From: Vicinamibacterales bacterium
Lineage (GTDB): Bacteria; Acidobacteriota; Vicinamibacteria; Vicinamibacterales; JAMQPK01
Direction: 5' to 3'
Length of the DNA stretch: 64,000 nt
Assembly (NCBI GenBank): GCA_963762055.1
Contig: CAVXJF010000017.1
Location: 528,149 to 592,148, forward strand
A program made the position numbers and the translations under genes. This document shows positions 12,799 through 30,626 of the stretch, in pieces. Positions within the stretch are counted from its first letter, which is position 1, and each line of letters starts with the position of its first letter. The notes under the pieces were generated by a model. It was not told where the DNA came from and did no database searches. It worked only from the letters and a program-made list of their open reading frames with translations.

Positions 12799-14688
12799 AT
12801 GTCCCTAATGACGGCGCTACGGACCGGCGACAGGGTCAGCGCGTATGAAATCGTCGGCCTGCTTGGCCACGGCGCGATGGGCGAGGTCTATCGGGCGCGC
12901 GACACTCGCCTGGGACGGGAGGTCGCCGTCAAGGTGCTCCCGGTCGCGTTCGCCACCGATCCGGATCGTCTCGCCCGCCTCGAACGGGAAGCGCGGCTCA
13001 TCTCGCAGGTCAATCATCCGAACATCTGCACACTTTATGACATCGTCGAAAGCGAAAACGCGCCGTTCCTGATTTTCGAGCTCGTCGAAGGCGAGACGCT
13101 CCAGCAACGGCTTCTCAGGGGCCCGATGCCGGTGAGCGACGCGTTGCGCTATGCCTCGGGCATTGCGGCGGCGCTCCAGGCCGCTCACAGCAAAGGGATC
13201 GTTCATCGTGATTTGAAGCCATCGAACATCAAGACGACCGCCGGCGGCGACATAAAGGTGCTCGACTTCGGCGTGGCAAGGCTGGCACGCGGGTCCGACT
13301 TCGAGCCCGACGGTTCAGATCTCACGATTACCCTTGGCGGCACAAAAGAGGGGGCACTGGTCGGCACAGTTGCCTATGTGAGCCCTGAGCAGGCGATGGG
13401 CGACCACGTTGATGCAAGAAGCGACATCTGGGCGTTTGGCTGTCTGTTGTACGAAATGTTGACGGCCAAGCGTGCGTTTCCCGGTGTGGCGGTGGCAGAT
13501 ACGCTCGCCGCCGTCATGCGCGGAGAACCAGACTGGGCGGCGTTGCCCGGCGCAACGCCATCCGCGGTTCGGACGCTGCTGCGCCGATGCCTCGAAAAAG
13601 ATCGCGGGCGGCGGCTGGCGAACATCGCCGACGCACGTCTCGAAATCGATGACGTGCTGGCCGGACGCGCAAACATTGCCGGTCCATCGAAGCCTCGCTG
13701 GGGTCGTTTGATTGTCGCGCTGGCATTCCTTGGCGGCATCGTGTTCGCGAGCCTGATGGCGCGTATCGCGACCGATCGGCAGGGCGAGGCGGACCGCCCT
13801 GTTGTCGATGCGGCCACTCGTGCCATCGATATCGCTCCACCTGTGTCTCGCGTGCCGGCGTTCATCAGTCTGCCGCCGGGTGTGAGATGGGCTCAAGCCG
13901 TCGACGATGGCGTGCCGAACACCATCCTCGCGATCTCGCCAGACGGCCGCCGCGTCGTCTTCAGCGGGCGCACGGAAGACGGAACGGCGCTCTGGCTTCG
14001 CTCGCTCGCGGTCGATGACGCCAGGCAATTGCCCGGCACTGAGGATGGTGTCTCACCGTTCTGGTCGCCAGATGGTGCTTCGATTGGATTTTTTGCCGAT
14101 CGAAAATTGAAACGGCTCGACGTCGATCGATCCGGCGTGCCGACGGCATTATGCGAGGTTCGGAGCCAGCGCGGCGGCACGTGGGGGCCCGACAACACGA
14201 TCGTGTTTTCGCCGTTCTCCGGCCCGCTCCGGCGTATTTCCGCGAACGGCGGTCCGGTCATGGCCCTCCCCGATCCGGAGGAGGACGAAGCTGCCCAGGT
14301 GCGGCCATATTTCCTTGCCGGCACCAGACAGATCATCTATCGCGTCACCTCTCGAAACGGCCGGAACAACTCGTATTACGTCACCTCGCTGGATTCGACC
14401 GACAGAACACTCATCGGGACGTTTGATTCCGGCAGCGTCACCTATTCTCACGGTCATCTGCTCTTCATGCAGAACCACACCTTGATGGCGCAACCATTCG
14501 ATCACAACAGGCTGACGATCACTGGAGCTCCACGCCCACTCGCAAATGGCGTCCTCCTGTCGCCCGGGTCTATGCCTGTATTCGGTGTGTTCTCGGTGTC
14601 GCAGGCTGGCAGGCTGGTGTACTTGTCCGAGGGAGGCAATTACAACGACGCGATGACGGTCATGGCCGATTGGTCACGCGCCCGCTAG
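12799..14688 (+). CDS. Ser/Thr protein kinase with one TM and a periplasmic TolB-like beta-propeller
   Basis: GHGAMGEVYRA, VAVKVL, HRDLKPSNIK, DFG and SPEQ kinase subdomains. TM is LIVALAFLGGIVFASLMARI. WSPDG-type repeats follow. Confidence 0.9.
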   Translation: MSLMTALRTGDRVSAYEIVGLLGHGAMGEVYRARDTRLGREVAVKVLPVAFATDPDRLARLEREARLISQVNHPNICTLYDIVESENAPFLIFELVEGETLQQRLLRGPMPVSDALRYASGIAAALQAAHSKGIVHRDLKPSNIKTTAGGDIKVLDFGVARLARGSDFEPDGSDLTITLGGTKEGALVGTVAYVSPEQAMGDHVDARSDIWAFGCLLYEMLTAKRAFPGVAVADTLAAVMRGEPDWAALPGATPSAVRTLLRRCLEKDRGRRLANIADARLEIDDVLAGRANIAGPSKPRWGRLIVALAFLGGIVFASLMARIATDRQGEADRPVVDAATRAIDIAPPVSRVPAFISLPPGVRWAQAVDDGVPNTILAISPDGRRVVFSGRTEDGTALWLRSLAVDDARQLPGTEDGVSPFWSPDGASIGFFADRKLKRLDVDRSGVPTALCEVRSQRGGTWGPDNTIVFSPFSGPLRRISANGGPVMALPDPEEDEAAQVRPYFLAGTRQIIYRVTSRNGRNNSYYVTSLDSTDRTLIGTFDSGSVTYSHGHLLFMQNHTLMAQPFDHNRLTITGAPRPLANGVLLSPGSMPVFGVFSVSQAGRLVYLSEGGNYNDAMTVMADWSRAR

Positions 14689-15119
14689 CCGATCCAGTAA
14701 CGCGGCCCCGCGCCCCGGCGTGCTGCGCGGTCTCCCGGATTCGCGAACTGACAACGATCGAGCGAAAGGCAGCCGCATCCGATACATTCGCTGAGACTCG
14801 ACTTCATCCGTTGCAGCTCTGCGATGCGTTGATCGATCCGCGACGTCCAGCTTCTGGACAGCTTCGCCCAGTCTGCGCGCTCCGGCGCACGATTGCGGGG
14901 CAGCCGGGCAAGTTCCGCGCGGATCTCCTCGAGCGATAACCCCACCTTCTGGGCGAACACGATGAACGCCACACAGCGAAGGACACTCCTGGGAAATCTG
15001 CGGTGTCCGGAATCGTTCCGCAAAGCCACGATCAGCCCCTGCTCTTCATAGAACCGCAGCGCCGACGTCGCGACCCCGCTGCGCGCCGCCACTTGGCCGA
15101 TGGTCAATGGTTCATCCAT
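14685..15119 (-). CDS. soxR: redox-sensitive MerR-family activator SoxR
   Basis: MerR HTH (LTIGQVAARSGVATSALRFYE) plus the SoxR [2Fe-2S] motif CIGCGCLSLDRC. Confidence 0.85.
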   Translation of the reverse strand: MDEPLTIGQVAARSGVATSALRFYEEQGLIVALRNDSGHRRFPRSVLRCVAFIVFAQKVGLSLEEIRAELARLPRNRAPERADWAKLSRSWTSRIDQRIAELQRMKSSLSECIGCGCLSLDRCQFANPGDRAARRGAGPRYWIG

Positions 15120-15181: not shown

Positions 15182-15919
15182 ATGACGCAAATGACAAACC
15201 CGACTCGAATCGCTCTCGTAACAGGCGCCAGCCGCGGGCTGGGGCTGGTGATCTCCCGTGTTCTCGCCGGGCTGGGCTACGGGCTGGTGATCGGAGGCCG
15301 CGATCGCAAAGCCCTCGCTGACGCCGAGGCGCAGTTGTCGCATGACGCGCCTGCCGTCGTCACGGTTGCAGGTGACATCACCGATGCGGCGGTGCGCGCG
15401 GACATGATCGACGCAGCTCGTCGCATGGGTGGCTTGAACGTGCTGATCAACAACGCGTCGGAACTCGGAAGCATCGGCCCGCTCCTGACGTTCGATGTCC
15501 CGCGCTTCGGTCGCTTGTTCCCGGTGAATGTCGGAGCGCCACTGGTGCTGATCCAGCTGGCAACGCCACTACTGGCCGACCGCGGAGGCCTGATCGTCAA
15601 CATCACGAGCGACGCCGCGACAGGAGCATATCCAGGGTGGGGCCCGTATGGCGCGACGAAGGCCGCATTGGAGCTGCTGACTCGCACACTCGATGCCGAA
15701 CTGCACGACAAGGGAGTGTCGGCAGTTCTCGTCGATCCCGGAGACATGCAGACCCGCATGCATCAGGAGGCCTATCCGGATCAGGACATCTCGGATCGGC
15801 CGTTGCCAGATGTCACCATGCCGTTCTGGACCTGGTTGTTCCGGCAGGACTTCAAGGATATCCACGGACAACGATTCACTGCCCAACAGGAGGACGCGCG
15901 ATGGCTGCAGCGGGTGTGA
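15182..15919 (+). CDS. short-chain dehydrogenase/reductase (SDR), probable SoxR target
   Basis: TGASRGLG cofactor motif, NNAS, and a Y...K catalytic pair (YGATKAAL). Confidence 0.85.
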   Translation: MTQMTNPTRIALVTGASRGLGLVISRVLAGLGYGLVIGGRDRKALADAEAQLSHDAPAVVTVAGDITDAAVRADMIDAARRMGGLNVLINNASELGSIGPLLTFDVPRFGRLFPVNVGAPLVLIQLATPLLADRGGLIVNITSDAATGAYPGWGPYGATKAALELLTRTLDAELHDKGVSAVLVDPGDMQTRMHQEAYPDQDISDRPLPDVTMPFWTWLFRQDFKDIHGQRFTAQQEDARWLQRV

Positions 15920-16990
15920 TCGACGCGTTCACACTGCCGGCTCATCTCGAGGCGGCCGAGCCGCCGGAGGCGCGCGGCCTCGAGCGGGACGATGTGCGGC
16001 TGCTGGTGTCGAGTATTGCCACCGACGCCATTCATCACTCGCGCTTCAGCAAATTGCCGCGATGGCTTTCGCCCGGCGACCTCCTGGTCGTCAACACCAG
16101 CGGAACATTGAAGGCGGCTCTCGACGCGCGGACTGAATCCGGGGACGCAATCGAGGTTCACCTTTCGACGCACATGCCGGGAAATTTCTGGGTGGTTGAG
16201 GTACGCCGCCACGGACCCACGGGCACGTCCGCTGATCACGATGTGCGCGCAGGAAGCAGGTTGGAGCTGGATCACGGAGGCGGCATCAACCTGCTTGCGC
16301 CTTACCCGTTTGCCTCGCTGGCCAGGCAGATCGCGCTTATGGCTGGCGGTGCTGCAGCTACCCGAGCCGGTGCTGGCATATCTCGAGCGGTTTGGAAAAC
16401 CGATTCGCTACAAATACGTTCCGGCATCGTGGCCGTCTTCCATGTACCAGACCGTTTTCGCCACCGAGCCTGGCAGCGCCGAGATGCCCTCCGCCGGACG
16501 ACCGTTTACCCACATGCTCGTAACGCGACTCATCGCTCACGGAGTGCAGATCGCACCGTTGCTGCTCCATACAGGCGTGGCGAGCCTGGAGCAGCATGAG
16601 CCGCCCTACGAGGAGTACTTTCGCGTGACGCCCGAGACGGCGGAGCGTGTCAATGCAGCCAGGCGCGGCGGACATCGCATCGTCGCCGTCGGCACGACAG
16701 TCGTACGTGCGCTCGAGACTGTGACCGACGATCGCGGGACGACGTCACCAGGCGAGGGTTGGACAAATCTCGTGATCACTCGTGAGCGTCCGCTGCGAGC
16801 GGTGACCGGCATGATCACGGGGCTGCACGAACCGCGCGCCACGCATCTGGAGATGGTGAAGCAGGTGATCGTCGCGGCCGGCGGCGATGCGCCTTCTGCT
16901 CACCTCGATCGCGCGTATCGTGAAGCCATCGAGGCGCGATACCTGTGGCACGAGTTCGGTGATTCACATCTCATTGTTGGTGGCAGGTGA
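15901..16990 (+). pseudogene. queA: S-adenosylmethionine:tRNA ribosyltransferase-isomerase, frameshifted as assembled
   Basis: N-part: HHSRFSKLPRWLSPGDLLVVNTSG. C-part (frame of 16196): YQTVFA...GSAEMPSAGRPFT...VAVGTTVVRALE...GLHEPRATHL. Junction at about 16320-16335. Confidence 0.8.
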
Positions 16991-17153: not shown

Positions 17154-19474
17154 ATGCGCGACACGTCTCTCGACGGTATTCCATCCGGCGGTCCCGTAAA
17201 AGGTGCGGTCGCGTCCCCGACGCGCGCGTTGATCCTTGCGACGATCTCGTTCGCGCTGTCGTTCGCCGCGTGGGGCCTTGTGGGCGGGCTCGCATCGATC
17301 TTCACAGCCCTCTACGGTCTGACCGCGTCTCAAACCGCGCTGTTGGTGGCGGTGCCGGTGCTGCTCGGTTCGTTGGCACGATTGCCGATGGGCATGCTGA
17401 CGGATCGCTACGGCGGACGGGTCGTGTTCACCGCACTCCTCGCCTTTTCCTCGCTGGCTGCCTTTGTCGTTCCGATGACCGGCAGCTACGGCTCGCTCCT
17501 CGTCGCGGCATTTCTCGTCGGCATGGCCGGCTCATCGTTCGCAGTGGGTGCGGCCTTCGTGTCCCGCTGGACCCCGGCGGCCCGGCAGGGCACGGCGCTC
17601 GGCGTCTACGGCCTGGGAACGATGGGTCAGTCGCTGGCTGTCTTCGTCGGCCCGGTAGTGGCGGCCCGCTTTGGCTGGGAAGTCGTGTTTCGCGGCACAA
17701 GCGTGCTGCTCCTGGCTTGGGCGGTAGCGTACTTTCTGTTAGCGCGGAATCCACCAGCACGCCGGCCGTCCCGCCACGGTCGCCGCGATGATGGCGTTGC
17801 TGCGCCGTGCGCCGACGGCCTGGCTGCTCGGCGCCTTCTACTTCCTGACCTTCGGCGGCTTCGTTGCGTTCTCGATTTATCTGCCGACGCTGCTGCGCGC
17901 GCAATTCGGCCTCGCTCCAGCCGACGCAGGATTCCGTGCAGCTGGTTTTGTCGTCCTCGCGACATTGATGCGGCCTGTGGGCGGATGGCTGGCAGATCGG
18001 ATCGGCGGAGCCCAGGTGCTGTCGTGGGTCTTCGGTGGCGTTGCCCTCTTTTCTCTGCTCCTGACGTGGCCGTCCATGGTGCCGTTCACTGTCGGCGCCC
18101 TGGGATGCGCGATGCTGATGGGACTCGGCAACGGCGCCGTCTTCAAGCTGGTGCCGGAGCACTTCCCGAAAGACACCGGCACGGTGACCGGCCTCGTCGG
18201 CGCCCTCGGCGGGCTGGGCGGGTTCTTCCCGCCGCTGCTCCTCGGTGTCTTTCGCGATCGACTCGGCGCCATATGGCCCGGGTTCCTTCTCCTGTCTGCG
18301 ACTGCTTTGCTCCTGCGCGCAGCCAATCAGCGCGTATTTCACCCAGGCGACGTGGAATGGACGCGGTCTCTCCCGGTGGCCGCGCGACAGGCGCTCGAGC
18401 GCGTCAGAGCAGGCGCGTGGGCCGCTCTCGTCACGGCCACGCTTGGCGGCGGCAATCGTTGTCGGGTCGCGAAACCTTCAGCACTTCGATGCGGCGCTCG
18501 TCGGCTACACCTTCGCGACGCTTTTTGCGGCGTTCGGGATCAGCTATCGCTACGCGATGTGGCTACATCGTCCACCGACGCGGATGTATTGGCGTCGCGG
18601 ATGGCAAGCCTTCTTCTCACGGCGCGCAGTGGCCAGCAACACCGTCAGCCTCGGCCGTCGCGCGCTGATCGAGTTCGCCGCCAACGCGTACATCTTCCGC
18701 CGCGGCCGGCTCCGCGGGCTCGCGCACTGGCTGATCATGTGGGGGTGCCTGCTCGCGGCGGCGATTACGTTTCCGCTGGTCTGGGGCTGGATCCACTTCG
18801 AGACCGTCCCCGGCGACCTGCACATGTACCGGACGTTCGTGTTCGGCATTCCGATGCAGGACTTCCCCGTCGAGTCCGCCTTCGCCTTTGTCATCTTTCA
18901 CGGGCTCGTGTGGTCGTCGTTCCTGGTCATCGCCGGCGTGATGATCGCGTTCCGGCGCCGCATGATCGATCACGGCGCGGTCGCGGTGCAGCAGTTCGGG
19001 CAGGACATCCTGCCGCTGCTCCTGCTCTTCGCGATCAGCGTCACGGGCTTGATGCTGACGGCCAGCTACACGTGGATGCGGGGATATGCGTACGAGTTCC
19101 TCGCGATTCTCCATGCCGTAACGGTGATCGTCACGCTGCTCTGGCTGCCGTTCGGCAAGCTGTTCCACATCTTCCAGCGGCCGGCGCAACTCGGTGTCGG
19201 CTTCTATAAGGACGCGGGCGCACGCGGTGAACAGGCGGCGTGCCGGCGCTGCGGGCAGCCCTTTGCCTCGCAGCTGATGGTGCGCGACCTCGCCGTCGTC
19301 GAGCGGGAACTCGGCTTTCGCTACGAGCTGCCGGGCGGCGGGCATTACCAGGACGTCTGCCCTAGATGCCGGCGCGCGCTCTTCGGTCTGGCGCAGGGGG
19401 CATTGTGGCAGCAGCATTTGAACGCAGGGCCGGCTTCGCCCGGGGACTTCGGCGGAACCGAGAAGCAGAGGTAG
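17154..19474 (+). pseudogene. nitrate/nitrite-porter-like MFS transporter fused to a NarI/DsrM-like membrane domain and a C-terminal 4-Cys ribbon; two frameshifts as assembled
   Basis: MFS halves sit in frames 0 and 1 (LTDRYGGR, MLMGLGNGAVFKLVPEHFP). The third segment (frame 2) has 5-6 TM with conserved His, ends [15 protein letters not shown], and is followed by CRRCGQ...CPRCRR. Junctions at about 17765-17775 and 18442-18448. Confidence 0.7.
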
Positions 19475-21771: not shown

Positions 21772-22449
21772 ATGGCCAAACCGGACTACCTCCACTTCTT
21801 CATCGATCCGAACCGCTGCATCGGCTGCCAGGCGTGTCTGCAGGCGTGCTCCGAGTGCGACACGCATCGCGGCGAGTCGATGATTCACCTCGAATACGTG
21901 AACCGGTCCGAGAGCGTCCAAACGGTGCCGGTCGTGTGCATGCACTGCGAGCAGCCGACGTGCGCGGAGGTCTGTCCGGCCGATGCGATCAAGCGCACCG
22001 GCGACGGCGTCGTGCAGTCGGCACGAAAGCCGCGCTGCATCGCCTGCGGAAATTGCGTGGTCGCCTGCCCGTTCGGCGTGCCCGAGCTCTACGAAGACCG
22101 CAAGATCATGATGAAGTGCGACATGTGCTACGACCGCACGAGCGTCGGCAAGAAGCCGATGTGCGCGACCGTGTGCCCGAGCCAGGCGCTCTTCTTCGGC
22201 ACGCGCGAACAGATCGAACAGTTGCGCCCGCTCTCGGCGCCGGTCAACACCTTCCAGTTCGGCGAGCAGACGATCACCACGCAGGTCTACGTGATGGTGC
22301 CGCGCAAGCTGACGAGCGCGGCGCCACACGTCGATGTCACCGCGGCAATGGACGAGCAGCCGCGGAACCGCGCCGTGTCGTTGAAGGTGGTGAGCGCGCC
22401 TGCCGCGGCGGCGGTCGAGAGCGATCCGTTTGCCGAGGTCGAGGTGTAG
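21772..22449 (+). CDS. 4Fe-4S dicluster electron-transfer subunit (DmsB/HybA-like)
   Basis: Four Cys clusters: [37 protein letters not shown] and CDMC...CATVCP. Confidence 0.85.
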
Positions 22450-22451
22450 CA

Positions 22452-23098
22452 ATGGCCGACGTCCGTTCCGATCCACGTCGCCCAATCGATCCGGCGATCA
22501 ACTCGCCAGGGCGTGAAGGTCTGACCGGTACGGCACCCGCCAACCTCTATGCACCCGGGTTCGAGCGCGAGCAGATCACGATCGCACCGGACTTCGCGCC
22601 CGCTGACGCCCAACCAGCCTGGCGGCAGGACTTCCCGATCGACTGGCCGCAGGATCTCTACGTCGAGCGCCGGGACTTCATGAAGTTCCTCGTCTTGACC
22701 AGCGCCGCGTTCACGCTGGGACAGGTGTGGATTGGCGTACAGAACTGGTACCGGAAGCGCGCCGGCCAACCGGCATGCAGCGGATCGCGTCCGTCGACGA
22801 TTTGGCCGTCGGCGCCGCGGTCGTCTTCACCTACCCGAACGAGCACGAACCCTGTCTGCTGGTGCGGCTGACGACGAGCGAGTTCGTCGCCTTCAGCCAG
22901 AAGTGCACGCACTTGTCGTGTGCCGTGATTCCCCGGCCGGCCGAAGGCAGCTTCTACTGTCCCTGTCACGAGGGACGGTTCGACCTGCGGACGGGTGCGC
23001 CCACCGCCGGGCCGCCTCGCCGGCCGCTGACCCGAATCGTGCTCGACATCAGGGGACGAGACATCTACGCCGTCGGCGTCGAGGAGCGGACGATATGA
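22452..23098 (+). pseudogene. membrane-anchored Rieske [2Fe-2S] protein, frameshifted as assembled
   Basis: N-part: ERRDFMKFLVLTSAAFTLGQVW (TAT-like anchor). C-part (ORF 22727..23098): CTHLSC...CPCHEGRFD. Junction at about 22770-22776. Confidence 0.75.
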
Positions 23099-23403
23099 AC
23101 GCCTCGGCGAAGCGGCCGTTCAGCCGCGACCAGCGGACGACCATCGTCTACGGGATGCTGGTCTTCGTGCTGATGATCGTGATCCTGCAGCTCTGGCTGC
23201 TGACCGCGACGATGAACGCGTGGCTCGGCGGGGACGATTCCGTCGTGTGGCCGGCGGCGGCAGTCAGCGCCGGCGGCCTGGCGTTGAACGTCGGACTGCT
23301 GACGTTCCTGGGCAGGATCGAACATACACGCAGAACGGAGAGTAGGACACGATGGCGAGCACGCTTCCGCCCGGCGAACTCTTCGCGCTGGAAACCTTGG
23401 TGA
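23095..23403 (+). CDS. small two-TM membrane protein coupled to the Rieske gene
   Basis: ATGA overlap with the Rieske stop. Two hydrophobic helices (IVYGMLVFVLMIVILQLWLL, AAVSAGGLALNVGLLTFL). The 3-prime end overlaps the cupin gene, so the stop is uncertain. Confidence 0.4.
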   Translation: MNASAKRPFSRDQRTTIVYGMLVFVLMIVILQLWLLTATMNAWLGGDDSVVWPAAAVSAGGLALNVGLLTFLGRIEHTRRTESRTRWRARFRPANSSRWKPW

Positions 23404-24224: not shown

Positions 24225-24647
24225 GTGCGGCGTCTCGTTGGACTTTTGCTCGCGCACTCCCTGGTCGTGTCATCGGCCATGGCTTCGTCGATGCACGTCC
24301 ACGAGTACGCGGAGCACGATCACCCGGATCATCATCACGGACCGGCTGCTCACGAGCACAAGCATTCAGAAATAGCCGACGAGGATCACGACTCGACGAC
24401 AGACGATGACCAGCCAGCGTTGCAGGCCGAATCGTGCGACCCTGGCCGCCATGCGATCTCGGCTGCCTTAGGGTGCGCCCAGGTTCCGCAGGGACACGCC
24501 GCCCTGGCCGACCTCCCAGGTCCGACGATCATCGCCCCGATTGCATTGGACCGATCCGCCACACCCATAGTTGACGTTCGCGTTCACGGTCCGCCGTTTG
24601 ACGTTCGAATTCCCGCGCGCGCCCCGCCTGTAACACCCCACGCCTGA
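24225..24647 (+). CDS. His-rich small secreted protein preceding the metal-efflux genes
   Basis: GTG start and signal-like N-terminus, then HVHEYAEHDHPDHHHGPAAHEHKH and an acidic stretch. Sits directly upstream of the czcCBA-like genes. Confidence 0.45.
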   Translation: MRRLVGLLLAHSLVVSSAMASSMHVHEYAEHDHPDHHHGPAAHEHKHSEIADEDHDSTTDDDQPALQAESCDPGRHAISAALGCAQVPQGHAALADLPGPTIIAPIALDRSATPIVDVRVHGPPFDVRIPARAPPVTPHA

Positions 24648-24742
24648 TCACCTGACCGGCGCTTCGGCCTCCTACGCCCAATTTGGGCTTCGGCGAGGCA
24701 GGCCTGGTCGTCTGTAGTTCGAATAACCCGAGGACTGTTTGT

Positions 24743-25954
24743 ATGCCGATCCGTGCCCAGGTCTGTACCTGGATCGCCGCGGTCAGCCTGCTGGCGCCAT
24801 CTGTTGCCGCCAGTCAGGACCGGACCGAGCGCGAACTCGTGGAGCTGATCGTGCGTGATGGGCCGCAAGCCAGGGCGATCCGCGCCGAATCGGAAGTGAC
24901 GCATCGTGAGCAGCTCGCGCGGCTCTCGTATCCGAATCCTTCCGTCACGTACAGCCGAGAAGGGGCGGGCTTCACCGAATTTTTCCAGGCGGAACAGTCG
25001 ATATCGTTATTTGGCGCACGTGACGCGCTGTCGCGAGCCGGCGTGGCGGCGACCGCCGCCGCAGAGGCCGAGCGCGATCTGCGGTTATGGCTGCTCCGCT
25101 CCGATGCCGCCGCGGCGGTCGCTCGGGTTGTCGCCGGACAGGAACGGCTCGAGTCCGTTCGAGCCCACATGCGCGAGGTGGAACGGCTCATCGAGATCCT
25201 TCGCACCCGCGAGCGAGAAGGCGAAGGCTCGCGTTTCGATCGGATGCGAGCGGAACAGGAGCTCCGCGACACCAACCAGGCTATGACGTCCGCAGCAGTC
25301 GCGCTCGCCGAAGCGCGTGCGACGGTCTCGGGCATGCTGCCACAAACCGTTTCGCTGACCACGGTTGCAAGCACGCAGATCACGCAGCAGCCGCCGATCC
25401 CCTTCGAGACTTTGTTCACACGAGCGACGTCCACTCGGGCAGAGCTTCGTGCTCTCGAGCAGCTCGGTCAACGCGCGACGTTCGAAGCCGACGCGGCTCG
25501 ACGAACACGGCTCCCAGCCCCGAATCTGTTCGGGGGCGTGAAGCGAGCGGACGAGCTGTCGGGCCGCAAGACCGGCGGCGTGTTCGGGGTGAACGTGGCG
25601 CTGCCCCTGTTCGATGACGGCGGCCGCGAAGCCGCGCGGTGGGAGGCCGAGCGGGCACGCGTCGCGGCGGAGCGGATGTTCATCGAATATCGCATCCGCA
25701 GTGAGATCACCGGCGCGTCAGAGGTGCTGACGCTCCGTCAAGCCGCGCTGTCCCAAGAACAGCCGGGGGCCGCGGAGGAGCTGGTGCAGATCGCGGTGGT
25801 CGCGTATCGCGAGGGTGAGGTCGGCATTCTCGAGCTGCTCGATGCGGCGCGTACCGCCTCACGGGCAAGGATTCGCAGCATCGATCTACGGCTGGACGCG
25901 CGGCTGGCGCAGATTGCTCTGGAACGCGCAGTGGGAGAGACATTGTGGCCCTGA
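24743..25954 (+). CDS. TolC-family outer-membrane efflux protein (CzcC-like)
   Basis: Signal peptide MPIRAQVCTWIAAVSLLAPSVAASQ. Two coiled-coil/beta repeats typical of OEP family proteins. Confidence 0.8.
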   Translation: MPIRAQVCTWIAAVSLLAPSVAASQDRTERELVELIVRDGPQARAIRAESEVTHREQLARLSYPNPSVTYSREGAGFTEFFQAEQSISLFGARDALSRAGVAATAAAEAERDLRLWLLRSDAAAAVARVVAGQERLESVRAHMREVERLIEILRTREREGEGSRFDRMRAEQELRDTNQAMTSAAVALAEARATVSGMLPQTVSLTTVASTQITQQPPIPFETLFTRATSTRAELRALEQLGQRATFEADAARRTRLPAPNLFGGVKRADELSGRKTGGVFGVNVALPLFDDGGREAARWEAERARVAAERMFIEYRIRSEITGASEVLTLRQAALSQEQPGAAEELVQIAVVAYREGEVGILELLDAARTASRARIRSIDLRLDARLAQIALERAVGETLWP

Positions 25955-27480
25955 GATTTCCGTTCTCAACGTTTCTCATCGCCGTGCTCGCGGCCGGGTG
26001 CGGTCGTTCAGCCGCGCCCGACGCCACGCCGGAAGAACCCGAAGTACTGAGCGTGACGCGGTGGACGGAGAAGACGGAGCTGTTCGCCGAATATCCGCCG
26101 CTCGCAGTCGGCTCCACGTCACGTTTCGCCATTCATCTCACGCGTCTGAATGACTTCAAAGCACTCACTGAAGGAAACGTGGAGGTTCGGCTCGAGGGCG
26201 GTTCGGCCCCACCGGAAGTGTTTCGTGTGGAGGCACCGTCTCGTCCAGGCATCTTCGGAGTTGACGTGAAACCCACCCGCGCGGGCAACCGCCAGCTCGT
26301 GATCGCGCTCAAGGCGAATGGATTGAATGATGAACATCGGGTCGGCGAGGTCCACGTGCATTCGAACGCCGCCGCCGCCCGTGCCCAGACGCCGCCAGCA
26401 CGCGGGGATGCGCCGGGCATCAGCTTCCTGAAGGAACAGCAATGGAGCCTGGACTTCGGGACCGCACTCGTGAAGGAGGAGGCGGTCAGTGAATCCATTC
26501 GCGTTCCAGCGCGCCTCGAAGCCCGACCGGGCGGCGCCGCCGATGTGGTCGCACCCATTGACGGTCGGTTGGCGGGCGTCGTCGAAGTGGCGCTAGGGGC
26601 GAGCGTCTCTCGCGGGCAGGAGCTCGCCCGCCTGCAGCCGCCGCCTTCGGCGCCGGCGGATCTTCCACAGCTTCAACGGGCACACAACGAGGCACAGACA
26701 GCGCTCGCTCTGGCGACGCGCGACCGCGAACGCGCAGAGCGGCTGACGAGCGCCGGAGCGGCGCCTGGCAAGCGCCTGGACGAAGCACGGTCGACCGAGG
26801 AGCAGGCGAAAGCTCGTCTCACCGCGGCTGAGGCAAGTCTGGCGCAGTACAACGCCGCACGCACTGGAAGCGCCACTGACGCTGAGGGGTTGTTCGTCGT
26901 TCGCGCCCCCGTGAGCGGCGTGATCGCTCAGCGCAATGCCGCAACTGGGGCGAACGTCACCGCCGGAAGCGTACTGTTCCGCGTCGTGGATGCCGCACAG
27001 GTACACGTCGTCGGTCAGATTCCGGAAGCACAGGCGGCGCGTGCACGCCTGGCGCAGGCGGCGGAAATCGAAATGGCGGGACAACCGGATCGCGTGCCGG
27101 CGGGCCGGCTCGTGAGTGTCGGGAAAGTGCTCGATTCAGAGTCCAGGACATTGCCCATCACATTCGCCTTCGACAACCGGACGCTCGGATTACCTGTCGG
27201 GCAGGCCGCGTTCCTCCATCTGCAAATGGAGACCACGCAGCCCCGCCCCGTCGTTCCCACAGCAGCCATCGTGGACGATGCGGGGCGGCCGATTGTGTTT
27301 GTGCAGCGCGAGGGCGAGACGTTCGAGCGTCGGGCGGTGACGCTCGGCGCGAGATCGGGCGACGTTGTGCAGATCACCGAGGGCCTCAAGCCCGGAGAAC
27401 GCGTGGTGACGAAGGGCGCCTACCTCGTGCGCCTGGCGTCGTTGTCCACGTCGGTTCCGGCGCACGGACACGTGCACTGA
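25945..27480 (+). CDS. efflux RND periplasmic adaptor (CzcB/CusB-like) lipoprotein
   Basis: Lipobox LAAGC. An N-terminal extra beta domain, a coiled-coil hairpin and a beta-barrel (VVPTAAIVDDAGRPIVFV). Confidence 0.85.
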   Translation: MALRFPFSTFLIAVLAAGCGRSAAPDATPEEPEVLSVTRWTEKTELFAEYPPLAVGSTSRFAIHLTRLNDFKALTEGNVEVRLEGGSAPPEVFRVEAPSRPGIFGVDVKPTRAGNRQLVIALKANGLNDEHRVGEVHVHSNAAAARAQTPPARGDAPGISFLKEQQWSLDFGTALVKEEAVSESIRVPARLEARPGGAADVVAPIDGRLAGVVEVALGASVSRGQELARLQPPPSAPADLPQLQRAHNEAQTALALATRDRERAERLTSAGAAPGKRLDEARSTEEQAKARLTAAEASLAQYNAARTGSATDAEGLFVVRAPVSGVIAQRNAATGANVTAGSVLFRVVDAAQVHVVGQIPEAQAARARLAQAAEIEMAGQPDRVPAGRLVSVGKVLDSESRTLPITFAFDNRTLGLPVGQAAFLHLQMETTQPRPVVPTAAIVDDAGRPIVFVQREGETFERRAVTLGARSGDVVQITEGLKPGERVVTKGAYLVRLASLSTSVPAHGHVH

Positions 27481-27530
27481 CGGACGCTGACGGCTGCTGA
27501 GAGCTGAAAGCCAAGAGCTGAGAGCAAAAC

Positions 27531-30500
27531 ATGATTGACGGACTCATTCGCTGGTCGCTCAGGCATCGCCCGATTGTCATCGCGCTCGCCGCCGCGTTCC
27601 TCATCTGGGGCGGGTGGACGGCCACGCGCATTCCTCTGGATGTGCTGCCCGATCTCACCGCGCCGACCGTGACGATCCTGGCCGAAGCGCCGGGTATGGA
27701 TCCGCTCGAGATCGAGTCGCTGGTCACCTTCCCCATCGAATCCGCGCTGAATGGCGCGGCGGGCGTTCGCCGGGTGCGTTCCGCGACGGCAGTAGGCGTC
27801 GCCGTAGTGTGGGTCGAGTTCGACTGGGGACAAGACATCAACCGCGCCCGTCAGACGGTCGCGGAGAAGCTCACGTTGGTGTCGGGATCGCTGCCGCCGA
27901 ACGTCGAGCCACCGTTCATGGCACCGATCTCTTCGATCATGGGCGAGGTGTTGTTCATCGACCTGGAGTCGGACCGCCACTCGCCGCTTGAACTCCGGAC
28001 CGTCGCGGAAACCGTCGTCAGACGTCGGCTTCTGGCCGTTCCTGGCGTCTCCCAGGTAATCGCAACGGGAGGCGAACAGAAGCAGTACGAAGTAGTCCTC
28101 GATCCTGTACGCCTTGCAGCACACCAGGTGACGCTTCAGGAAGTTGAAAATGCGCTCGTCGCCGCGAATCAGAACGCGACCGCAGGATTTCAGGTCGCAC
28201 AAGGGCAGGAGTACCTGGTACGCGGCGTCGGCCGTCTCGGTGACGCCGACGCTATCGCCGCGGTAAGGGTCAAGTCCGCGGGCGCGGCCCCAGTGCTCAT
28301 ACAAGACGTGGGTATCGTTCGCGAAGGTGCGGCGATCAAGCGAGGCGAAGGCTCGCACGATGCCAAACCTGCCGTCATCGTTGGCATTCAGAAACAGCCG
28401 GCGGTCAACACACTGGAACTGACCGAGCGCATCGACGCCACCCTTGATGATATCCAACGGGCCTTGCCTCAGGGCATGCAGATCCATCGCGATCTGTTCC
28501 GGCAGGCCGACTTCATCGAGCAGTCGCTCGACAACCTCTTCACCGCGTTCATCGAAGGCGCGATCCTCGTCATCCTCGTGGTTGTGGTGTTCCTGATGAA
28601 CATCCGGGCGGCAATCATTACGCTGCTCGCGTTACCGTTGTCGCTGGTGGCCGCCGTCATTGCGATGGATCGATTCGGTCTCACCATCAACAGCATGAGC
28701 CTGGGCGGGCTCGCCATTGCCATCGGTGAGCTCGTCGACGACGCCATCATCGACGTGGAGAACGTCGTCCGGCGTCTGCGGGAGAACGCAACACGGCCAG
28801 ATGCCGAGCGCTTGCCCGTGCTCGAGGTCGTCTACCGCGCAAGCACGGAAATCCGGCACTCGGTCGTGTTCGCGACCGTCATCGTCGCGCTCGTCTTCCT
28901 GCCGCTGTTCATGTTGAGCAGTGTCGAGGGCCGCCTGCTGCGGCCTTTGGGCTTCAGCTATGTCGTAGCACTGACCGCTTCGCTTGTCGTCGCACTCACG
29001 GTCACACCAGTGCTGTGCTCCTTGCTCCTGCCGACATCACGCCTGACTGCGTCGGGTACCGAGCCCAAATGGACCCTACGCCTCAAGGCCGCGTACGAGC
29101 GATGGCTCGGCCATGCGTTCACGTACTGGCGGACAGTTCTGACCGCTGCCGTCGCTCTGCTGGTTGCCGCGCTCCTGGGCATCGTTGCAGCGGGCCGATC
29201 GTTTCTTCCTGAGTTCAACGAAGGTGCCTTGACCGTGAGCGCCGTGACGGTTCCGGGGACGAGCCTCGCGGATTCAAACGCGCTCGGCAATGCTCTGGAG
29301 CGGCTGATGCTCAGTGTGCCGGAAGTCACTTCCACGGCGCGACGAACCGGGAGGGCTGAACTGGACGAGCACGTACAAGGAGTCGAATCCGCGGAGATCG
29401 ACGTCCGGCTCGAGATGAAGGACCGGCCGCGCGAAACGGTGCTCGAAGAACTGCGACAGAAGGTCTCACTGCTCCCGGGCACCAACGTCACGATCGGCCA
29501 GCCGATCTCGCACCGCATCGACCACATGCTCTCCGGCACGCGCGCAAACATCGCCGTCAAGATCTTCGGCGACGATCTGCTCACCCTCCGCCAGCTGGCG
29601 AGCCAGGTGCAAGGTCAGATGTCGCAGGTCGAGGGGGTGGCCGACCTCGCGACAGAGGCGCAGACCGACATTCCGACGCTCAAGGTGCGCGTCGATCCGG
29701 CAGCAGCCGCGCGTCAAGGACTCGAATCGGGGACAGTCGCCGAAGCCCTGCAGACGGCGCGTGTCGGCCATGCGGTAGGTCAGATTCTTCAGGGGCAGAT
29801 CGCCTTTCCGTTGGTCGTCCGCTATGCGCTGGACGAATCGAGGGAGCTCGACGCGATCGCCATGACGCCGATCCAAACGCCAGACCGTCGTCAGATTCCA
29901 CTGTCTGCTGTGGCTACGATTCAGGAAGATCGTGGCCCGAACTTCGTCATGCGGGAGAACGTCCAACGGCGCATCGTCGTCCAGAGCAACGTTTCCGGGC
30001 GCGACCTGCGCGGCGTGGTGAACGACATTCAGGATCGCGTCACCCGGAACGTCAAACTGCCACAGGGCTACCACATCGAGTACGGCGGTCAGTTTGAAAG
30101 TGAAGCACAGGCGTCCAGGCAGCTCCTCTGGCTCTCGCTGGGCGTTATCGTCGCGATCTTCTTCATCCTCTCGGCGGCGTTCGGCTCGTCGCGAGACGGC
30201 CTGTTGATCATGATCAATCTGCCGCTGGCCCTGATTGGCGGGGTCATCGGTGTGTACCTGGCGGGCGGGGTTCTGTCGGTGGCATCGATCGTCGGTTTCA
30301 TTACCCTGTTCGGCATTGCCACCCGCAACGGGATCATGCTCGTCTCACACATCCGTCATTTGCAGGAACACGAAGGTGTGAGCGACTTCAGGACGGCCGT
30401 CGTTCGAGGCGCGACTGAACGGCTGGTGCCGATCCTGATGACGGCGCTCGCCGCAGGACTGGCACTCGTACCGATCGCATTGTCTGCCGGCGAACCTGGC

Positions 30501-30626
30501 AGCGAGATTCAAGCGCCGATGGCGATGGTGATCATGTTCGGGCTTCTGAGCTCGACAGCCCTCAATATGATCGTCGTGCCGATTCTTTACGTTCGGTTCG
30601 GTCGTCCCACAGCCACGGTCTCGTAA
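27531..30626 (+). CDS. CusA/CzcA-family heavy-metal efflux RND pump
   Basis: 1031 aa, 12-TM RND layout. N-terminus IDGLIRWSLRHRPIVIALA...LDVLPDLTAPTV is typical of HME-RND. Confidence 0.95.
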   Translation: MIDGLIRWSLRHRPIVIALAAAFLIWGGWTATRIPLDVLPDLTAPTVTILAEAPGMDPLEIESLVTFPIESALNGAAGVRRVRSATAVGVAVVWVEFDWGQDINRARQTVAEKLTLVSGSLPPNVEPPFMAPISSIMGEVLFIDLESDRHSPLELRTVAETVVRRRLLAVPGVSQVIATGGEQKQYEVVLDPVRLAAHQVTLQEVENALVAANQNATAGFQVAQGQEYLVRGVGRLGDADAIAAVRVKSAGAAPVLIQDVGIVREGAAIKRGEGSHDAKPAVIVGIQKQPAVNTLELTERIDATLDDIQRALPQGMQIHRDLFRQADFIEQSLDNLFTAFIEGAILVILVVVVFLMNIRAAIITLLALPLSLVAAVIAMDRFGLTINSMSLGGLAIAIGELVDDAIIDVENVVRRLRENATRPDAERLPVLEVVYRASTEIRHSVVFATVIVALVFLPLFMLSSVEGRLLRPLGFSYVVALTASLVVALTVTPVLCSLLLPTSRLTASGTEPKWTLRLKAAYERWLGHAFTYWRTVLTAAVALLVAALLGIVAAGRSFLPEFNEGALTVSAVTVPGTSLADSNALGNALERLMLSVPEVTSTARRTGRAELDEHVQGVESAEIDVRLEMKDRPRETVLEELRQKVSLLPGTNVTIGQPISHRIDHMLSGTRANIAVKIFGDDLLTLRQLASQVQGQMSQVEGVADLATEAQTDIPTLKVRVDPAAAARQGLESGTVAEALQTARVGHAVGQILQGQIAFPLVVRYALDESRELDAIAMTPIQTPDRRQIPLSAVATIQEDRGPNFVMRENVQRRIVVQSNVSGRDLRGVVNDIQDRVTRNVKLPQGYHIEYGGQFESEAQASRQLLWLSLGVIVAIFFILSAAFGSSRDGLLIMINLPLALIGGVIGVYLAGGVLSVASIVGFITLFGIATRNGIMLVSHIRHLQEHEGVSDFRTAVVRGATERLVPILMTALAAGLALVPIALSAGEPGSEIQAPMAMVIMFGLLSSTALNMIVVPILYVRFGRPTATVS

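Follow-up and report, generated by a model that had tools for sequence, protein, structure and literature searches.

The window analysed here, a stretch of 64,000 nucleotides from contig CAVXJF010000017.1 of a Vicinamibacterales bacterium, encodes a NarK-like porter of the major facilitator superfamily (MFS) fused to a NarI-type membrane anchor (17154-19474), followed by genes for a molybdenum (Mo) enzyme subunit, a four-cluster iron-sulfur (Fe-S) protein, a Rieske protein and a small DUF6755 protein (Table 1). Open reading frame (ORF) listing and three-frame translation identified three successive coding segments of the fusion gene on the plus strand, each in a different frame (17154-17755, 17757-18442 and 18444-19474). 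The frame 0 segment encodes the N-terminal half of the MFS domain and its product ends in AYFLLARNPP near 17755, the frame 1 segment encodes the C-terminal half with the GLGNGAVFK signature and ends near 18442, while the frame 2 segment encodes a domain of six transmembrane (TM) helices with the HWLIMWG, FHGLVW and LHAVTV motifs, then the CRRCGQPF...CPRCRR tail and the stop codon. All of the motifs quoted in an original prediction, which had been made from the sequence alone, are present in these translations. The Pfam MFS_1 domain matches both MFS halves (1.7e-24 and 9.4e-15 for the N- and C-terminal half, respectively) and the C-terminal piece as sole query retrieves thousands of homologues, indicating that the three frames are real rather than the product of chance.

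Table 1. Features of the fusion gene and of the operon that it heads, with positions in the window
Feature	Position	Strand	Description
NarK-like MFS N-half, TM1-6	17154-17755	+	Frame 0; TM2 arginine in LGSLARLPMGMLTDRYGGR; start codon uncertain, other in-frame starts at 17019-17097
Extra A	17756	+	Frame shift 1 (+1); CCACC[A]GCAC vs CCGCC-GCA; absent from 10/10 aligned orthologous loci
NarK-like MFS C-half, TM7-12	17757-18330	+	Frame 1; second substrate arginine in ATLMRPVGGWLADRIGG; GLGNGAVFK at 18121-18147
Cytoplasmic linker helix and one extra TM helix	18331-18493	+	AlphaFold2 secondary structure and alignment; also in standalone homologues
Extra T in TT run	18443	+	Frame shift 2 (+1); CGCT[T]GGCG vs CGC-TGGCG; absent from 10/10 aligned orthologous loci
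NarI/QmoC-superfamily five-TM core	18494-19183	+	Frame 2; three-strand periplasmic hairpin between core helices 2 and 3
His of HWLIMWG	18725-18727	+	C-domain residue 94, joined residue 524; nearly invariant; cytoplasmic start of core helix 2
His of LHAVTV	19112-19114	+	C-domain residue 223; invariant; aligned with NarI H187, a distal-haem ligand
His of KLFHIFQRP	19166-19168	+	C-domain residue 241; nearly invariant; aligned with NarI H205, a proximal-haem ligand
Cytoplasmic CxxC-x35-CxxC ribbon	19241-19369	+	Cys codons at 19241, 19250, 19358 and 19367; followed by a C-terminal helix, stop ends at 19474; confident in AlphaFold2
NasC-like catalytic subunit with Mo-bis(pyranopterin guanine dinucleotide) (Mo-bisPGD), 757 amino acids	19481-21754	+	N-terminal 4Fe-4S motif; no twin-arginine signal; Pfam, NCBIfam
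Four-cluster Fe-S protein (DmsB/FdhB/NrfC-like)	21772-22449	+	Four Cys groups; NCBIfam DmsB 1.8e-27
Rieske [2Fe-2S] protein	22452-23098	+	Conserved N-terminal extension of ~75 amino acids, ERRDFMKF twin-arginine motif, TM helix; Pfam Rieske
DUF6755, small two-TM protein	23095-23403	+	Pfam 5.8e-35; start overlaps the Rieske stop codon

It is near-certain that the three segments constitute a single gene, coding for a transporter fused to a NarI-type anchor and interrupted by two one-base insertions. The original prediction had placed two frame corrections at approximately 17770 and 18445 and had called for a search for full-length homologues in a single frame. The joined 772-amino-acid query retrieved at least 120 such proteins (738-793 amino acids; 84-92% identical), named only 'MFS transporter' or 'NarK' in the databases. 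Similarly, a single frame spans residues 1 to ~757 in approximately 47 of 80 loci taken from species-representative genomes of Acidobacteriota, Planctomycetota and Myxococcota; these 47 belong to Vicinamibacteria and other Acidobacteriota and include Illumina-type assemblies. Three homologues (P0005, P0028 and P0059) read in one frame across both junctions, for example '..ARNPPHAARPASVAAM..' (also given as '...ARNPPHAARPASVAAMAAVLRR...'). When the DNA was aligned with that of ten orthologous loci, exactly two single-base insertions within the gene were unique to the window, an A at 17756 and a T at 18443, and deletion of both yields a 772-codon ORF with zero internal stops. The ratio of non-synonymous to synonymous substitution (dN/dS) of the corrected gene, calculated against six orthologues, is 0.11-0.25 for the first segment and 0.03-0.11 for the two segments past the shifts. 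The single-frame homologues, the bases found only in the window, the stop-free corrected ORF and the low dN/dS together argue that the fusion is real and that the window copy carries two one-base insertions. Both of the outcomes that had been named as fatal to the fusion, a stop between its parts and homologues that always encode them separately, are contradicted by these data, as the corrected sequence is free of stops and fused single-frame proteins are found throughout the clean assemblies of the lineage.

An arrangement of two or three separate genes, with one or both MFS halves preceding a NarI-like protein with its own start, is extremely unlikely. While the NarI-like domain is known as a standalone protein of ~360-390 amino acids in Myxococcota, Planctomycetota and Bacillaceae, and gene callers produce fragments of 349-553 amino acids on error-containing contigs, the clean assemblies of the lineage always encode one protein of 740-790 amino acids. 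Furthermore, both junctions fall within conserved sequence, the second within a TM helix, and the orthologues show no stop-and-restart there. Separate genes are ruled out by the single-frame homologues. Programmed +1 ribosomal frameshifting at both sites, with which the common direction of the two shifts would agree, has next to no chance of being correct: none of the ten aligned orthologues has the extra base at either site, the shifts in other loci occur at different positions and neither site lies in a conserved slippery or stall context. With no orthologue sharing the same shifts, this mechanism was likewise rejected.

Errors of assembly or sequencing are the most likely cause of the insertions at 17756 and 18443, since two other genes are also broken and frame shifts are concentrated in one series of metagenome-assembled genomes (MAGs). 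The queA-like gene upstream (Pfam Queuosine_synth, 15895-16990, plus strand) is split at approximately 16330, with profile positions 6-104 and 124-322 in different frames, while the Rieske gene bears a one-nucleotide deletion after approximately 22774 that occurs in the window only when compared to ten orthologues and that severs the cluster-binding domain from the preceding part, which comprises the N-terminal extension and the TM helix. Frame shifts in the fusion gene affect six of the 26 loci from the 'MFD...contig_' MAG series, which we take to be a long-read data set, as opposed to none of the 27 other fused loci, and frame-shifted protein calls derive from several long ENA contigs (P0006 and P0089). 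A recent pseudogene, where the two insertions and the Rieske deletion would be real mutations in an operon that has just been lost, is unlikely. In its favour and against an origin in assembly error, three of the four indels seen between 15.9 and 23.1 kb are located in the operon and the insertion at 17756 lies outside any homopolymer. Loss of the operon is opposed by the frame shift in the adjacent and unrelated housekeeping-type queA gene, by the absence of a stop or other lesion from the corrected gene and its low dN/dS past the shifts, and by the scattered shifts of the same kind in that one MAG series.

The N-terminal part of the protein is, from its sequence relationships, a divergent porter of the nitrate/nitrite porter (NNP) type rather than a certified NarK equivalog. 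Its only matches among the Protein Data Bank (PDB) sequences are NarU and NarK (2e-18 and 1.5e-16), and the TM2 arginine falls on the LLRVPYSFMVPIFGGR motif in the alignment with these two proteins. The NarK model TIGR00886 matches at 5e-63. Both substrate arginines, which presumably correspond to the substrate-binding residues R89 (TM2) and R305 (TM8) of E. coli NarK, are aligned and conserved (slaRlPmgmltdryGGR / alLRvPYsfmvpifGGR and tlmRpvGGwlaDriGG / alaRsaGGalsDrlGG). The second glycine-rich signature (TM11) pairs GLGNGAVFK with GLGSGSTFQ, while the first (TM5) reads GLGTMGQS where NarK has GLGNMGVS, with Asn replaced by Thr. An AlphaFold2 model of the full-length homologue P0121 (92% identical) contains 12 helices ahead of the linker, and the best Foldseek match of the full-length model is NarK (4U4W; 23-25% identity); this model was derived from a shallow alignment, with a predicted local distance difference test score (pLDDT) of 70 overall and of 50-70 in the C-terminal domain, and was used for the MFS part only. 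The proposed 12-TM, nitrate-porter-like MFS domain is thus retained.

The C-terminal membrane domain is, as judged from profile comparisons and structural models, NarI-like at the superfamily level, with the QmoC/TcuB type rather than NarI as its closest subfamilies. Modelling of this domain with AlphaFold2 and a diverse alignment (pLDDT 93.8; predicted template modelling score 0.85) gave six TM helices, in agreement with the five to six that had been suggested. The second of the outside loops forms a hairpin of three strands, and the tail is compact, with two Cys knuckles ahead of a helix. In the topology that the model suggests, the MFS domain would end in the cytoplasm, the extra helix would cross outward and so place the N-terminus of the NarI-like core in the periplasm, the five core helices would be arranged as in NarI and the tail would be cytoplasmic. 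The best match of the family profile among the PDB sequences is E. coli NarI (E 5.5e-4), and hhalign aligned the two with 94% probability over NarI residues 95-220. Residues 11-50, 96-159 and 181-220 of the NarI reference sequence agree with the profile-search output, and the positions of H56, H66 and K86 agree with the established mutant numbering. Foldseek placed mycobacterial EtfD and NarI chains first (probability 0.98-1.0), with NarI chains at ranks 2-7 and 9 (TM-score of ~0.5 on the target) and the next unrelated match at a probability of 0.47. Among 37 diverse family members, the QmoC model matches 36 (best 2.1e-11), TcuB 27, TmcC 19, DsrM 14 and HmcE seven, all with scores far under the equivalog cut-offs, while the Pfam domain Nitrate_red_gam (PF02665) matches 21 at E <= 0.01 (best 1.1e-5) and one relative (P0360) scores exactly at its threshold. 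The NarI-like domain of the original prediction therefore stands as a superfamily assignment by profile, hhalign and Foldseek; the window domain itself falls below the Nitrate_red_gam cut-off (19.2 bits vs 22.9).

The family is large: clustering at 50% identity leaves 1217 representatives at E <= 1e-3, of which 801 reach E <= 1e-10. Most members are standalone proteins of 340-390 amino acids, and a few further MFS fusions share only 42-54% identity. Standalone NarI-like proteins of 380-400 amino acids (P0396-P0514; loci L082-L085), with no MFS domain, are encoded by dozens of cultured Bacillaceae, among them Mesobacillus, Metabacillus, Halalkalibacter, Evansella and Anaerobacillus. NCBI names some of these MFS-less anchors 'MFS transporter' and others 'respiratory nitrate reductase subunit gamma'; the former name looks like one propagated from fused relatives. 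In P0329 (830 amino acids) and P0360 (627 amino acids) the NarI-like domain continues into the first part of the Mo subunit (Molybdop_Fe4S4), through either read-through from frame errors or genuine further fusions. A gene coding for a hemerythrin-domain protein (196 amino acids) is located directly upstream of a standalone anchor gene on one 189-kb JGI contig (P0076).

Only three histidines are conserved across the family, namely H94 (HWLIMWG), H223 (LHA) and H241 (FHIFQRP) in the numbering of the C-terminal domain. Both profile alignment and hhalign match H223 and H241 exactly to H187 and H205 of NarI, while H94 is a candidate equivalent of NarI H56 on the grounds of topology; in a global hhalign alignment the columns that relate helices 1-2 to NarI had zero confidence and were discarded. 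The cytoplasm-side haem site is thus predicted to retain a full bis-His set (H94 and H241) and the outer site one conserved His. A complete NarI-like pair of haems is not supported by the conserved histidines. NarI H66 has no counterpart, with no His ten residues after H94; H117 is His in approximately 20 of the 37 members and H151 is His or Asn, the motifs with a variable His being WIHFE and FHGLVW. The nearest solved fold, EtfD, is that of a single-haem protein. EtfD has five TM helices and a single haem b, located on the cytoplasmic side, with a menaquinone site 4-5 Å from the haem (PMC13083937), so that a one-haem version of this fold has a precedent. Of the His pairs envisaged for bis-haem ligation, two residues do align with NarI H187 and H205, while the equivalent of H66 is missing and three rather than four histidines are conserved. 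The FHGLVW His, previously listed as conserved, proved to be His or Asn across the family.

The C-terminal CxxC...CxxC ribbon was also correctly recognised, and its four cysteines are kept in most members. It shows weak matches to HycF/HyfH-like profiles. Three of the four cysteines are missing from P0250 and P0261 and, because of this loss, an obligatory redox centre in this tail is considered unlikely. A structural zinc ribbon is favoured instead, one that probably serves in docking.

The fusion gene is the first of five closely spaced genes, with intergenic gaps of 6, 17 and 2 nucleotides and a final overlap of 4 nucleotides. Neither the Mo nor the Fe-S subunit has a signal peptide. NasC (NF047855) is the best NCBIfam model for the Mo subunit, which matches the narG model at only 2.2e-13. 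Its Mo-ligand motif RLCMVSA pairs with RLxH, RLCH, RICH and RVCH of five solved formate dehydrogenases, so that Cys-Met stands in place of Cys/Sec-His; Cys-Met at the Mo ligand is the pattern of Nap and Nas enzymes. The Rieske domain is nearest to the arsenite oxidase small subunit, and its orthologues have RRxF[LM]K ahead of the TM helix in every lineage checked (RRAFLK in Bacillaceae). Pfam identified no cytochrome b, the b-type partner of the Rieske protein having the NarI fold instead. No HdrD-like CCG domain is present in the fusion protein or the operon, and no NasB/NirB-type donor gene was found in the operon or the flanks examined. Some Bacillaceae have an additional gene between those for the Fe-S and Rieske proteins, coding for a Mrp/NUBPL-type Fe-S cluster carrier ATPase (PF10609, 1.8e-79; L083:5497-6228 and L085:14077-14814).

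The order of the five genes (anchor, Mo, Fe-S, Rieske and DUF6755) is kept in the 80 loci as far as each extends downstream, as well as around relatives with 33-42% identity, complete Bacillaceae genomes included. Forty loci contain a fused MFS domain and no SLAC1/TehA gene. Conversely, an unfused anchor is accompanied by a SLAC1/TehA (TDT family) gene directly after DUF6755 in 17 loci with adequate flanks and in four with short upstream flanks (L050, L055, L056, L059, L061-L064, L066-L069 and L071-L079; e.g. L063:11737-12852, Pfam SLAC1 3.6e-48). A frame-shifted fused locus (L001) accounts for the sole apparent exception to this complementarity. In Evansella cellulosilytica (L084; CP002394, 4054-17039), DUF6755 is followed by a separate NarK that exceeds the family cut-off (323 vs 311.7 bits) and that neighbours a gene for a Crp/Fnr-family regulator, an arrangement reminiscent of narK-fnr of Bacillus subtilis, while molybdenum-cofactor genes (MoeA, MobB, MoaE and MoaD-like) lie upstream of the operon. 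The operon of Mesobacillus maritimus has no transporter inside it; one formate/nitrite-family gene and one MFS gene are located a few kb further downstream, on the opposite strand. A NarK-like or SLAC1/TehA transporter thus goes with the operon, fused or neighbouring, wherever the flanks allowed this to be checked. The complementary pattern is the strongest argument for a need of the enzyme for anion transport across the membrane, which would place its active site in the cytoplasm. It further argues that the fusion reflects functional coupling and not accident, and the gene fusion and synteny together suggest that transport may be coupled to electron delivery, as the original prediction had proposed.

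The fusion protein is probably the membrane module of a quinol-linked, cytoplasmic nitrate reductase of the NasC type. Nitrate is preferred over formate as substrate because NasC is the best model and because Cys-Met occupies the position of Cys/Sec-His in the formate dehydrogenases, while a cytoplasmic enzyme is suggested by the Mo and Fe-S subunits without signal peptides and by the conserved His pair at the cytoplasmic helix ends. An electron path can be proposed with about even chances of being correct. The anchor domain would oxidise membrane quinol and pass electrons through one or more bis-His haems b, at least that close to the cytoplasmic face (H524 and H671 in the joined numbering), from which they would reach the Mo site through the four-cluster protein docked on the cytoplasmic side, with reduction of nitrate to nitrite. 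The fused porter would import nitrate, and probably export nitrite, right beside the enzyme, while the Zn ribbon and C-terminal helix would help to dock the soluble subunits. The outward-facing Rieske domain and DUF6755 would probably form part of a quinol-oxidising or electron-entry site; three readings of this pair are possible, namely a quinol site at the outer face, entry of electrons from periplasmic carriers, or co-export of the Mo and Fe-S subunits by twin-arginine translocation (Tat).

A number of observations weigh against this proposal. A simple Nar-like scheme, in which electrons pass from quinol to the cytoplasm, does not accommodate the outward-facing Rieske protein and DUF6755. 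The curated cut-offs are missed by the porter (TIGR00886 for NarK, 213 bits vs 311.7) and by the Mo subunit (NasC, 768 bits vs 1100), for which reason the substrate is deduced indirectly. All three curated cut-offs, NarK, NasC and NarI, are thus missed, and the PDB sequences that match the Mo subunit best are those of formate dehydrogenases. These last points would fit a Mo enzyme acting on another oxyanion or on formate, with an MFS/TDT partner that moves, for example, tellurite, selenate, sulfite or formate, since members of the TDT family carry tellurite, sulfite or dicarboxylates. The Evansella Mo subunit (L084:11144-13264) even passes the Fdh-alpha cut-off (689 vs 666 bits), while scoring higher on NasC (923 bits; cut-off 1100), so that inconsistent automatic names are likely. 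Such a substrate is nevertheless improbable, as the best-scoring model in either lineage tested is NasC, the His that follows the Mo ligand in formate dehydrogenases is replaced by Met, both nitrate-binding arginines are retained and a NarK above its cut-off is encoded in the Evansella operon.

The RRxF[LM]K motif shared by all Rieske orthologues and the proximity of their domain to the arsenite oxidase small subunit also count against a cytoplasmic nitrate reductase, and would instead agree with a periplasm-facing complex. Here, the Mo and Fe-S subunits would be co-exported on the twin-arginine signal of the Rieske protein, as is known for AioAB, the NarI-like domain would feed electrons outward and the transporter would serve the product or another purpose. 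This is a rather unlikely arrangement, given that the conserved His pair and the four-Cys domain lie on the cytoplasmic side, that the Mo subunit is most closely related to cytoplasmic enzymes and that a nitrate importer encoded within the operon or next to it points to an active site in the cytoplasm. A very unlikely alternative is that the NarI-like domain senses nitrate or redox state, or acts as a scaffold devoid of haem, and is no electron conduit. The absence of one of the four NarI histidines and the loss of the four-Cys site from a few members would be compatible with such a role, while its constant association with a four-cluster protein and a Mo enzyme represents the classic layout of catalytic, Fe-S and anchor subunits and the two histidines aligned with NarI haem ligands are kept down to 30% identity. 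The operon encodes no signalling output domain, and the sensing function raised in the original prediction hence found no support.

An uncharacterised transporter-anchor fusion thus heads a widespread and uncharacterised Mo-enzyme operon. Carriers of the anchor domain include Vicinamibacteria, Myxococcota and Planctomycetota, all known through MAGs, together with the dozens of cultured Bacillaceae, a family in which the operon is common and can be tested directly. The five genes mix parts of different enzymes, with a Nas-type catalytic subunit, a DmsB-type Fe-S protein, an anchor of the NarI fold and a Rieske protein of the bc1/Aio type. NarK and NarGHI have long been suspected to work as a unit, and the covalent attachment of a porter to a membrane-embedded reductase subunit is an argument for such a unit of transporter and enzyme. 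Tentatively, the complex may represent an unrecognised class of bacterial nitrate reductase in addition to Nar, Nap and Nas, in which a NarI-fold haem-b subunit would connect a cytoplasmic NasC-type enzyme to the quinone pool. Together with the outward-facing, Tat-anchored Rieske protein and DUF6755, this subunit would make up a novel quinol-oxidising site, a Rieske/NarI module in place of Rieske/cytochrome b, and the porter, fused to the anchor in Vicinamibacteria, would belong to the complex. With NasC as its best model, the Mo subunit is probably counted as assimilatory NasC, which would affect nitrogen-cycle gene inventories; if the new class is real, many 'assimilatory nasA/nasC' counts from soil metagenomes would represent a membrane-bound and possibly energy-conserving enzyme.

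Elsewhere in the window, a MerR-family regulator is encoded on the minus strand (14685-15119), with a C-terminal motif, CIGCGCLSLDRC, that presumably resembles the [2Fe-2S] motif of SoxR; it lies beside an SDR-like ORF (15182-15919) identified by sequence reading. Reading of the ORF translations further suggests a small His-rich protein (24225-24647) ahead of genes in a heavy-metal-efflux-like order on the plus strand (24683-30626), coding for an outer-membrane factor, a periplasmic adaptor and a 1031-amino-acid RND pump.

Among known systems, E. coli NarGHI with NarK shares with the window operon a Mo-bisPGD subunit, a four-cluster Fe-S protein, an anchor of the NarI fold whose last helix has two histidines 18 residues apart and ends in ...PF(G/S)(K/R)L(F/I)HI..., and an associated porter with both substrate arginines. 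It differs in that the window catalytic subunit is NasC/Fdh-like (757 amino acids, Cys ligand) and not NarG, the Fe-S subunit is of the short DmsB type and not NarH, and the anchor is extended by a TM helix at its N-terminus, a hairpin on the periplasmic side and a four-Cys ribbon, and lacks an H66 equivalent. The porter is furthermore covalently fused, Rieske and DUF6755 proteins are added and there is no narJ gene. The complex would work like NarGHI and NarK, yet is outside that family. The QmoC, TcuB, TmcC, DsrM and HmcE anchors provide the best family-level sequence matches and EtfD (PDB 9OJN) the top structural match; QmoC-type anchors and EtfD pair with HdrD-like CCG Fe-S domains and none is fused to a transporter, whereas the window anchor is fused and pairs with a four-cluster protein and a Mo enzyme.

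Paracoccus denitrificans NasC-NasG-NasB with NasA/NasH also combines a NasC-type enzyme with a Rieske protein and a NarK-type transporter. However, NasG is a small, soluble, NirD-like ferredoxin that receives electrons from NADH via NasB, while the window Rieske protein is bc1/AioB-like and Tat-anchored, and in the window operon a haem-b anchor in the membrane and a four-cluster protein take the place of NasB/NirB. Tat-type Rieske subunits are encoded with a Mo-bisPGD enzyme in arsenite oxidase (AioAB) and in haloarchaeal pNar (Rieske subunit NarB and cytochrome b NarC), and in pNar a Rieske/cytochrome b module feeds the nitrate reductase. Both AioAB and pNar are outward-facing, and the b subunit of pNar is of the bc1 type, whereas the b-type subunit of the window has the NarI fold and its Mo subunit has no export signal. 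Similarly, the Tat-anchored Rieske protein is paired with a NarI-fold partner and not with a bc-type cytochrome b as in the bc1 and b6f complexes. Neither the fusion nor DUF6755 nor the complex is described in the literature searched, and the sole related text is a remark on Bacillus bataviensis (PMC3475470). There, a nasC/Fe-S/Rieske cluster was proposed as an alternative assimilatory system (Heylen and Keltjens 2012), in an account that mentions no NarI-like gene, DUF6755 or quinol link and reports no experiment (PMC3475470). Likened from its published description, the B. bataviensis cluster is probably an operon of the same type as that headed by the fusion gene of the window.

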